A stretch of DNA of 64,000 nucleotides, from NCBI RefSeq assembly GCF_016903815.1, contig NZ_CP069973.1; one strand, 5' to 3'. Below, piece by piece: positions 54,601-57,600 of the stretch. The stretch's first letter is position 1, and each line of letters starts with the position of its first letter. Made by a program: the position numbers. Source of the stretch: Escherichia coli (GTDB taxonomy: Bacteria; Pseudomonadota; Gammaproteobacteria; Enterobacterales; Enterobacteriaceae).

Positions 54601-57600
54601 AAGATCCGGTTACAGGGTGGATTTTCTATGAGGCAACTATAGAAGCTGTTGAAGGTGAAACCTTAATTGGCGCAATGATTCAGTATGCGCCGAAAAAAGG
54701 TGGTATAACTGAAGCGGGAGATTATATTTACCTTGCAACACCACAATTTGAAAACGGCGGATGTGCTTCATCTTTTGTTATTACGACAACTGCACCCGCA
54801 ACCCGCTCCAGTGATATGGTGACGATCCCAACTGAAAATAATATCTATAATAGACCGCTTACGTGTCTTGTCGAGGTTAATAGAAATTGGGGCGATATTC
54901 CTCCTAATGTAGCACCGCGTATTTTTGATTTTTCTGGTGTGCCACCTATTGAGTCAATTACATACGCTTTTAACACAACTGAGAAATATTACGGTCAGCT
55001 TTATATGCAAACTTATAAAGCGTCGACAAGTACTTACGTTTCTAGTGTGTTTGCTGGTCGAGCTGATGTTCGAAAATTCATTGGTGGTTTTAATATTTAT
55101 TCTGATGGTACTAAACGAGTAGTTTCTAACGGTGAGGCTACTAAAACTATGAAAACGGAGTGGACGGGCGTAAAAACACGGACCTTTATTCGAATTGGAG
55201 GTCAAGCCACATCGGGAACTCGTCATCTATTCGGCCATTTGAGAAATCTTCGTCTCTGGCATAAAGAATTAACTGATGCGCAAATGGGGGAGAGTATTAA
55301 ATGAAAGATTTAACACTCAAATTTGCAGACAGGGCCGACTTTTCGGCCTTTATGGAGAGCATTGGCTATTATGATGACGAGTCGATGCAGGATGATATTC
55401 TTATTGACGTGATAGGTAATGTGTACAAAGAAACCGGAGAACTTACTGAAGATGGCGAGCCGGTATGTGTTAAGGAGGACGGATATTTTGTAAATGTGCG
55501 CATCATTAATGATTCGCAAATATCGTCATTATTCGATGAACACGCGGTTGCTGTTGAGCATCAACTCCGTAGCTGGATGTGAGGAAGAAAAATGGCTACA
55601 TCGACAGTAATTCCTGATGACATCAAAACGCTAAAGGGAGATGTCAGTAAGGCAAAGGAAGATATTTCCTCAATTAACGTAAAAGTATCAACGCTTCAGA
55701 CTGATATGGACAGTGCAAAGCAGGATATCAGTACCAGATACACAAAAACAGAAGTGGATAATAAGCTGAAAAACAAAGTGGAAGTGAACGATCTGGAAAG
55801 TGGTCGTTATGGCGGAGATTTTTACCCGCTGACTGGCCGTGAAGCGTTTTATTTATGGGGATTGGGCACAACTACAGCGGCGGCAAATCTTTATCTTAAT
55901 CCTGACCCTGCAATTTCGTCTGTGCTGCGGTCAACATCGTCTATCCGCTATAAACATTCAGTAGAGACGATAGATTCAGAGCACGCCGATCTCATTTTCA
56001 GGATGCGCCCTGTGTGGTACAGGTCGCAATGCGAAAATGACAGGCGTGACTGGGGATTCTATGGATTGATTGCCGAGGAAGTAGGAGAAATTGCCCCTCA
56101 GTTTGTTCACTGGCGACCAGCCAACGAAGATGATGCACCGGAAACCATTTCCAGCAATGGCCTTGTTGCCGAAGGTGTAATGTACGAACGTCTGGTTGTT
56201 CCACTGATTCACCATATCCAGAAGCTGACTGAAAGAGTTGATGAACTTGAGTCAGAATTAAAGTTGTTATCCGTTTCCCGAAGCGATATCGGATAAAGGA
56301 GGCGTAATGGATATAACACCTTTCCTTCATGCACTTTGTGCTGTGGCTGCGCAGGTACTGGTTGGTCTTTTTACCGGAAACTGGGCTTACGGGGCGATAG
56401 CTGGTTGTACGTTCTTCATTGCGCGTGAACATACCCAGGCAGAATATCGCTGGATTGAAATGTTCGGGCATGGCAAGCGAATGAATATGCCGTGGTGGGG
56501 CGGTTTTGATCCGCGTGCGTGGGATGTGGCAAGCCTGATGGATTTTGCTGTGCCGGTGGTGGCGTGTCTGCTGGTCTGGCTGTTGGTTAATCGTGGGTGA
56601 AAAAAGGTGAGCTGTATATGCAACGGAGGAAGAAACCTCGTTGCGGGAAGCCTGGAAGAAGTATCGGGTGTTGCTGAACCGTGTTGATACGTCAACTGCA
56701 CAGATATTGAATGGCCAGCACTGCCGTAGGGTAAAACATATAAATTCTATAATTAGATGTATCTTTCCATTTACGGCAAGGAAGGGGGCTTGGAAGACGT
56801 AAGGCATCTCACACCGAGATTATTTTTTATATGTCAGGTGTCTGAAGTTTTGCTTTGGCTCTTAAAATGGTTTGCCGCGAGGTTTTGAATTCCCGGGCAA
56901 TGGCACTTATACTTACACCTGACTTAATCCGTTCGAATACCACCTGTTTCTGTTCTTCATTTAACACAGGTGGTCGACCAAAACGTTTCCCTGCGCCCCG
57001 GGCTCTTACTATCCCGGAATGAGTGCGTTCAAGTAAAAGGTCTCGTTCAAATTCAGCGACTGCTGAAATTACTTGCATCATCATTTTTCCTGTTGGACTG
57101 GTCAGGTCAATGCCCCCCCAATGCTAAGCAATGCACTCTGATACCTGTTTCGGTCAGTTGTTCCACTGTTTTCCTGATATCCATTGCATTACAACCAAGG
57201 CGATCCAGTTTTGTCACAATCAATTGATCACCACATTTCAGGCGAGCAAGCAACCGGTTAAAACCAGGACGCTCACTGGTTGCTGCTGAGCCGCTAATGT
57301 GTTCTTCGATTATTTGCTGAGGTTTGATTTTAAAACCTGCACTTTCGATTTCCCGGCGTTGATTTTCGGTGGTCTGATCCAGCGTTGATATCCGACAGTA
57401 AGCAAAAATTCGAGACATAGTGAGACTCTATACGAAATTGGTGCTCATATCATAATGCATCTCAGAAAATAATTTTGATTATTTTTGTGCATGTTTGTAT
57501 GTACACGTTCGAAAATAAACGAATGCGTATGCAACCCCGTAATTTTGGTGAGACCCAAAATCGATTTTGTGAAAAATGGCTTTAACTCGGTTTGTTTTTC

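Follow-up and report, generated by a model that had tools for sequence, protein, structure and literature searches.

The pinQ gene in the stretch of Escherichia coli DNA studied here (64,000 nt; hereafter the window) is very probably a genuine, vertically inherited loss-of-function allele, as judged from comparing its sequence with public genomes. The gene belongs to the Pin/Gin/Hin group of serine DNA invertases, and its pseudogene covers 56827..57418 on the minus strand, i.e., 592 nt with the stop codon compared with 591 nt for an intact copy. The surplus base is found in a G homopolymer at 57113..57119 (minus strand; C7 on the plus strand), which has one G more than the functional G6 run that is read as Leu-Gly-Gly (TTG GGG GGC). 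The frameshift as such is already known, i.e., RefSeq annotates it, and deposits of the truncated protein number in the hundreds. What our analysis adds is modest, namely a marker for a sub-lineage of ST405 and the G6 run as a site of repeated inactivation; it also touches the proposed anti-phage function of PinQ.

The pinQ locus and its prophage

In the window, an ST405-type E. coli carries a full-length lambdoid prophage at the Qin attachment site (ydfJ). We term the lineage ST405-type since WCHEC96200, a relative that shares this locus, is assigned to ST405 and phylogroup D (PMC5762679), and several relatives carry the label 'strain 405'. Compared with strain 103 (NZ_CP020495.1), the window is identical across 50000-64000, and for the range 40000-64000 the identity is 100.0% with one 1-bp indel.

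The prophage provides head, tail, gpJ, lom and tail-fibre genes. At its end, the order is tail-fibre module (52899-56600), tfaQ-like remnant, pinQ (minus strand), ydfK, ynfT, truncated ydfJ, ydfI, ydfZ, rspR and ydfG. The left neighbour of pinQ is thus the 3' remnant of a tfaQ-like tail-fibre assembly gene (56620..56730, plus strand, 110 nt), identified by alignment to K-12; homology to K-12 Qin starts with this remnant. It has a 1-bp deletion of its own at 56702/56703 and is annotated by PGAP as 'missing N-terminus', to which 'frameshifted' is added in strains 103, 222, AR_0015 and 98210. The right end is the same as in K-12 Qin with matching gene order: pinQ lies at the right end of a prophage inserted in ydfJ and is followed by ydfK and ynfT, and the gene is nearly identical to K-12 pinQ, which identifies it as the pinQ orthologue. 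PGAP uses the gene name pinQ for the locus as well.

Anatomy of the frameshift

On the plus strand, the tract and its flanks read ...GGTCAATG CCCCCCC AATGCTAAGC..., and the sequence of positions 57100-57130 is GGTCAGGTCAATGCCCCCCCAATGCTAAGC. The gene is split into two reading frames. The N-terminal frame (57107..57418, minus strand) starts with ATG at 57418, encodes 103 aa ending in ...HCLALGGH and terminates with TGA at 57109-57107; it covers the catalytic domain to just before helix E and includes the Ser11 nucleophile. The C-terminal frame (56827..57123, minus strand), shifted by one base, runs open from 57123 as far as the stop codon at 56829-56827; it encodes helix E together with the DNA-binding domain HTH_7 and ends in ...KLQTPDI. 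With regard to the Pfam Resolvase profile (145 positions), the N-terminal part covers positions 1-100 (PF00239, E = 3.5e-21) and the C-terminal part positions 103-144, followed by HTH_7. Since both pieces map to one Resolvase profile, they are the halves of a single serine recombinase that are joined exactly at the tract.

In the alignment to the Qin region of K-12, which has C6, one extra C is the sole indel within pinQ. Only three G/C runs of length 7 or more are found in the 64-kb window; that one of them coincides with the point at which a conserved gene changes frame is no chance pairing. The G6 copy of strain AR_0067 is intact (WP_000086527.1), and PGAP reports a 'pinQ recombinase family protein, frameshifted' at matching coordinates in strains 7/2 and 103.

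The repaired protein has 196 aa. It aligns end-to-end with the Gin structures 4m6f and 3uj3 (E = 3e-29), such that Ser11 is placed on the catalytic Ser9 of Gin, which is Ala in PDB 3uj3. Here, YCRISTLDQ is aligned with YVRVSTNDQ of Gin, i.e., the conserved serine-nucleophile motif Y-x-R-x-S-T-x-x-Q is present. The Gin alignment also places the break directly before IDxxSPxG...ERExxxERT, the segment that forms helix E. The identity with PinE of prophage e14 is 38%. Helix E and the HTH are both encoded, but in the displaced frame and thus not in one polypeptide with the catalytic domain. That is, judged by its sequence, the locus is a small serine recombinase of the DNA-invertase subgroup by descent and a pseudogene as a gene.

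These results agree in most points with the sequence-only reading that we followed up. Its position of the C7 tract is exact, its two invertase halves in different frames with a break at G7 are recovered by both the translations and the Pfam split, and its assignment to Pin/Gin/Hin-type serine recombinases is supported by the Resolvase and HTH_7 domains together with the Gin alignment. The +1 frameshift relative to six G in K-12 is likewise what the K-12 alignment provides. It had also named PinR as the K-12 counterpart. This holds for the sequence, i.e., the repaired protein is identical to the public-database sequence named PINR_ECOLI, but not for the locus, which is pinQ at the Qin site in ydfJ and not pinR.

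Since no stop interrupts the second frame between a point just ahead of the tract and the usual end of the gene, a full-length protein might be made via programmed +1 ribosomal frameshifting or transcriptional slippage on G7; homopolymer runs can support slippage of polymerase or ribosome in some systems. We regard this as extremely unlikely. The G6 ORF, ancestral and by far the most common, is uninterrupted and needs no recoding, the sequence TTG GGG GGG CAT TGA reveals by eye neither a known +1 signal nor a rare or hungry codon context, and the PGAP call is a frameshifted pseudogene.

Tract lengths in public genomes

We counted tract lengths in 5,426 complete E. coli genomes based on exact matches of probes that differ in tract length alone, using a 60-nt probe with 27-nt flanks for C6 and 85-88-nt probes with 40-nt flanks for C5, C7 and C8. 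C6 is found in 2026 complete-genome records and C7 in 25 (exact 87-nt probe), all from a single lineage. About 10 records, from unrelated strains, show C5 and none C8. Thus, about 98% of the complete genomes that carry the gene have G6. All 25 C7 records are identical (100%) to the window over 651 nt, while none of the other complete genomes that share its flanks, roughly 2000, has C7. Every inspected C7 copy in RefSeq is marked as 'frameshifted' by PGAP. The recorded origins of the C7 genomes are Sweden, Boston, Houston, Washington State, Egypt and Taiwan, and one isolate is from a wild bird.

In a collection of 15 billion proteins, the exact 103-aa truncated product is found on 743 public contigs and in 976 index blocks, among them Logan assemblies of short-read runs, a megahit contig from ENA and the NCBI records KTE41 and BIDMC 77. 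For 10/10 fetched sites that encode exactly this product, the tract is G7.

Among the explanations offered by the sequence-only reading was a homopolymer sequencing or assembly error, i.e., a true G6 and an intact gene. Two observations would fit such an error: near-identical genomes of the lineage differ by other 1-bp indels, and the scattered G5 calls in unrelated long-read assemblies resemble typical undercalls. The distribution of C7 argues strongly against it, given its presence in 25 members of one lineage, sequenced by many laboratories, and its absence elsewhere among complete genomes with the same flanks. Furthermore, the 98xxx series, elppa5/9, FDAARGOS, the AR Bank and the '405' series each report both C7 and C6 isolates from the same pipelines. 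A systematic artefact of the pipelines is thus unlikely, given that the laboratories with C7 report sister isolates as C6. The truncated product is also encoded in short-read assemblies (Logan, megahit), C7 co-segregates with the nested SNP and indel markers described below, and the window equals strain 103 over 14 kb. We therefore consider a sequencing error very improbable. In terms of these sequence comparisons, assembly error is excluded for the G7 allele, and for this window as far as identity with many independent genomes allows. The comparison with orthologous pin genes, proposed beforehand as a check, gives G6 for K-12 pinQ and C6 for the 2026 complete genomes, and of the three options that had been listed it is genuine inactivation that stands: a heritable allele found in 25 complete genomes with younger mutations nested inside.

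Inheritance within the ST405-type lineage

We compared about 22 kb around pinQ among 16 genomes of the lineage. Variants were called relative to strain 103 by pairwise blastn (BTOP), leaving out off-diagonal matches that result from a 189-bp tail-fibre repeat. Among the 16 genomes, the 1-bp deletion at 56703 is confined to C7 genomes (window, 103, 222, AR_0015, 98210), and the SNP 57772G is in turn confined to a subset of the genomes with this deletion (window, 103, 222, 98210). Such nesting is the pattern of a vertically inherited mutation with subsequent divergence. A further SNP (~68163A) is common only to three C6 genomes of the 16. Based on identity over 1859 nt, the exact sub-haplotype of the window is present in 8 complete genomes, and C7 without the 56703 deletion in 16 others.

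One marker does not follow this order. IS200C is inserted at one and the same position (52891, between lom and the tail-fibre gene) in combination with C6 (AR_0067, WCHEC040047) as well as with C7 (FDAARGOS_1281, 1579 and, by length, 2900), and C6 and C7 are also both present among the lineage genomes free of IS200C, which is mobile in this lineage. On these sequences, the IS200C marker is in conflict with a single origin of the allele without reversal, such that at least one extra event is needed. Candidates are a second tract change, excision or same-site re-insertion of IS200C, a recombination patch or a miscall. The SNPs within the 22 kb are too few to tell these candidates apart.

We also considered the upstream prophage, in 'variant A/B' form, as a phylogenetic marker and rejected it: strains 103 and 222, whose chromosomes are equally long, share the same tail but differ in their head modules. 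The gene order of strain 103 is rearranged beyond marR. Taken together, the head-module difference and the rearranged order suggest an inversion or recombination between prophages.

Recurrent changes of the G run

Tract lengths from G5 to G8 are present in public data, and ST405-type genomes include G6 as well as G7. Outside the haplotype of the window, G7 is found in a K-12-like Qin that contains tfaQ and an IS and in which SNPs flank the tract to the left and right (GCA_000408045.1) and in a different prophage, about 4% divergent, beside prfC/dinI (GCA_900449925.1). The G7 product with a K-12-type N-terminus is encoded by 15 contigs. The G5 product is found in 288 contigs with a PinR-type and in 95 contigs with a K-12 PinQ-type N-terminus, and the G8 product in 8 contigs. 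From the sequences, the G run is thus a recurrent slippage site with G7 on at least three haplotypes.

A slipped-strand phase-variable switch was the third explanation proposed from sequence alone. That is, the G tract would act as a high-frequency contingency switch of PinQ within a clone, together with PinQ-driven tail-fibre-like inversion and phage resistance. The tract lengths of 5, 6, 7 and 8 on several haplotypes in public assemblies are in line with switching, and so are the co-occurrence of G6 and G7 within ST405 and the one four-gamete conflict with the IS200C marker, which leaves room for one extra change at most. The census points the other way, since it yields 2026 G6 against 25 G7 complete genomes, the latter from one lineage, with about 10 G5 and 0 G8. 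G7 was moreover kept while the two nested mutations arose and across intercontinental spread, i.e., it stayed stable through later diversification. Contingency-locus runs are typically about 8 or more nt long, and E. coli is mismatch-repair proficient, which counts against phase variation; the functional tract of pinQ has only 6 nt and hence falls short of the 8 nt or more expected of a long tract in the 'on' state. A recent report on K-12 describes an anti-phage role of PinQ and devotes a section to the fitness cost of P-segment inversion; such a cost could favour switching (PMC12529663). Overall, a switch of this kind appears clearly improbable to us, and an inherited loss-of-function allele at a slippage-prone site remains the preferred explanation.

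Crossover sites, substrate and second invertase

DNA invertases of the gix/hix/cix/pix type act on an inverted pair of 26-bp crossover sites that flank an invertible segment; near pinQ, no such pair is found. The e14 pix core CCTTCTCCCAAACCAA has 0 matches in the 64-kb window at up to 3 mismatches, the AAACCNNGGTTT core is not found near pin, and inverted repeats across 52000-58800 are weak and at chance level only. Two half-site look-alikes at 56632 (GAAACCTCGTTGCGGGAA) and 57596 (GTTTTTCGAG) were discarded, each of them being only half a gix/pix site and not significant.

Kirigo et al. (2025; PMC12529663) report that PinQ of K-12 inverts, in trans, the P segment of prophage e14 (1797 bp), and that this inversion yields a chimeric StfE2 by which T2 adsorption is blocked. 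They describe inversions in e14 only and none in Qin or Rac, with which the window's lack of crossover sites is in agreement (PMC12529663).

A combined pinQ and pinE probe provides two sites in every C7 genome, while pinQ alone provides one. By subtraction, the C7 genomes would carry a pinE-like invertase gene elsewhere. The tfa-like sequences match other prophages, and a tail-fibre plus P-segment probe is thus no test for e14.

Proposed course of inactivation

The following course would account for these observations. Replication strand slippage presumably added one G to the G6 run that encodes Leu100-Gly-Gly102 (TTG GGG GGC). In the sequence, the frame then ends after 103 residues; the encoded product keeps the catalytic serine and is without helix E, i.e., the dimer/tetramer interface, and without the C-terminal helix-turn-helix domain. 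Because both are missing, the truncated product should neither bind nor recombine DNA. By analogy with Gin and gamma-delta resolvase, we infer that the 103-aa product has lost its activity.

The mutation appears to have arisen in a sub-lineage of E. coli ST405 and to have been inherited from there on, while descendants gained further mutations. The G run is a mutational hot spot at which similar +1/-1 slips have repeatedly inactivated pinQ/pinR-type genes in unrelated strains. The loss is probably tolerated: there are no adjacent recombination sites, the e14 P segment, inverted in trans, is the sole substrate that has been demonstrated, and a pinE-like gene is likely to remain. Reversion from G7 to G6 by slippage could occur at ordinary homopolymer rates, but not as a programmed switch. 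We thus read pinQ as an ordinary pseudogene whose G run is prone to slippage.

A more speculative variant assigns a role to this site. Here, the G6 run of pinQ/pinR-type genes would slowly turn an anti-phage defence on and off, in a way open to selection; this defence is activated by a recombinase, with PinQ inverting the e14 P segment and the resulting StfE2 blocking T2-like phages. Without phages, inversion would be costly and selected against, as a result of which +1/-1 slips recur on at least three haplotypes. Once phages return, slippage would restore the gene, and the ST405 subclade marked by IS200C, with its possible change from G7 back to G6, would be a case of such recovery. We give this variant little credence and retain the ordinary pseudogene as our reading.

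With regard to its consequences, the practical weight of the finding is small: as far as the sequences tell, functional PinQ would be missing from a sub-lineage with global spread within the multidrug-resistant clone ST405. The G7 allele can be used as a simple clade marker, along with the 56703 deletion and 57772G. Anti-phage inversion in G7 strains may rest on PinE alone, because PinQ is described as a trigger of this inversion in K-12 (PMC12529663); this could bear on phage susceptibility and phage therapy. The recurrent lesions of the G6 run are also an example of homopolymers that drive pseudogene formation among prophage accessory genes, and they illustrate that assembly frameshifts at homopolymers are not always sequencing errors.

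Comparison with known systems

The closest known systems are PinQ of Qin and PinR of Rac in K-12. The order of tfa 3' end, pinQ (minus strand), ydfK, ynfT, truncated ydfJ and ydfI is the architecture of K-12 Qin, the roughly 3.3 kb shared with it (pinQ to ydfJ) show about 98% nucleotide identity, and the protein shows 1-2 residue differences. The mean column identity of the whole K-12 alignment is 96%, lowered by its non-homologous left end. In contrast to K-12 pinQ, the gene has G7 instead of G6 and hence two frames and a 103-aa product. The left side differs from K-12 Qin as well, since it is a full-length lambdoid phage with another tail-fibre module (52899-56600) and not the stfQ'/tfaQ remnant.

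Gin of Mu, Hin of Salmonella, Cin of P1 and PinE of e14 share with pinQ the domain order Resolvase plus HTH_7 and the neighbourhood of phage tail-fibre and tail-fibre-assembly genes. Unlike these invertase genes, pinQ of the window is frameshifted and has neither a flanking pair of crossover sites nor an invertible segment in cis. Furthermore, it is transcribed towards the tail-fibre genes, while the e14 gene is transcribed away from them.

The poly-G/C contingency loci of Neisseria, Haemophilus, Campylobacter and Helicobacter likewise have a coding G run that sets the frame and whose +/-1 variants switch the gene off. The likeness is superficial only: the 'on' tract of pinQ has 6 nt, one length prevails in about 98% of the complete genomes with the gene, and the off state is stable within a clade.

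The best match is provided by the frameshift pseudogenes of decaying or cryptic prophages. Both result from a single-base homopolymer indel in a non-essential accessory gene, and pinQ is accompanied by degraded neighbours, i.e., the tfa remnant with its 1-bp deletion and the truncated ydfJ. The sole difference is that the same site of pinQ has been hit repeatedly in different strains.

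Markers nested within the G7 lineage

The frameshifted pinQ of the window is found in 25 complete chromosomes (G7 genomes). Two differences subdivide this group. First, the tfa remnant left of pinQ (56620-56730) carries a 1-bp deletion at 56702-56703, i.e., the window reads ACAG where K-12 and most relatives read ACAGG. As a result, this remnant, too, is labelled 'frameshifted' by PGAP. The deletion is confined to a subset of the G7 genomes, namely the window, 103, 222, AR_0015 and 98210, as well as 2779, 5283, 98192 and 98224 as judged by 1859-nt identity, and can be used as a nested clade marker. 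Second, position 57772 within ydfK (57768-58001, minus strand) is G in the window but A in K-12 and the other genomes of the lineage. This changes the YdfK product (WP_106651914.1 in place of WP_000836768.1) and is common only to the window, 103, 222 and 98210.

The distribution of IS200C is at odds with the G6/G7 split. In several relatives (L002, L007, L008 and L009), the interval separating lom (52241-52840) from the tail-fibre gene holds the element at exactly 52891, whereas this position is free of it in the window. Different sites are used in FDAARGOS_1279 (gpJ/lom interval) and in 405_CM132957 (ydfJ/ydfI interval), the latter also carrying IS1 between ydfK and ynfT.

Possible rearrangement between prophages

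With regard to strains 103 (L003) and 222 (L004), both from Boston, the chromosome lengths are equal (5,162,123) and the tail, pinQ and the flanks are alike, while the adjoining head modules, upstream of window position ~46600, differ (P22-like capsid vs. lambda-like portal/capsid). In strain 103, the gene order past marR furthermore leaps to ast/gapA (locus L020). Together, head modules and gene order suggest large inversions via recombination between lambdoid prophages.

Invertase genes and a possible crossover-site relic

In each G7 genome, a combined pinQ and pinE probe matches two places and pinQ alone only one. From these matches we infer that all 25 G7 genomes probably carry a pinE-like invertase gene elsewhere than in the window. 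Such a gene is absent from one G6 relative, DA33135.

Upstream of pinQ, about 180 nt from its ATG, the motif GTTTTTCGAG (57596-57605) is similar to the right half of pixL of e14 (GGTTTTCGAG). In a sequence of 64 kb, chance would be expected to yield an 8-mer match. The motif is kept in K-12 Qin, and a left half-site to partner it is absent. It could be the relic of a lost crossover site.

Homopolymer runs and repeats

Besides the pinQ tract, the window holds just two G/C runs of at least 7 nt, neither of which disrupts an ORF: a G8 (21471-21478) is intergenic, directly upstream of the ORF 21528-22031, and a small head-tail gene has a G7 (39950-39956) at its 3' end. The tail-fibre ORF (52899-55304; 801 aa; PF08400 N-terminal domain) contains 2.2 copies of a 189-bp tandem repeat (53439-53858) with sub-periods of 42 and 21 bp, coding for Ala/Ser/Thr-rich 'KTSETNAK' units. 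PGAP models of this gene vary between near-identical genomes, i.e., a CDS of 2061 or 1275 nt plus an N-terminal 'pseudogene' fragment.

Insertion site and right end

Since the prophage is inserted in ydfJ, the remaining gene (58754-60037) is without its N-terminus. The Qin prophage of K-12 is inserted in ydfJ exactly as in the window. The insertion site and the right-end module pinQ-ydfK-ynfT are common to Qin, a cryptic remnant, and the window's full-length prophage.
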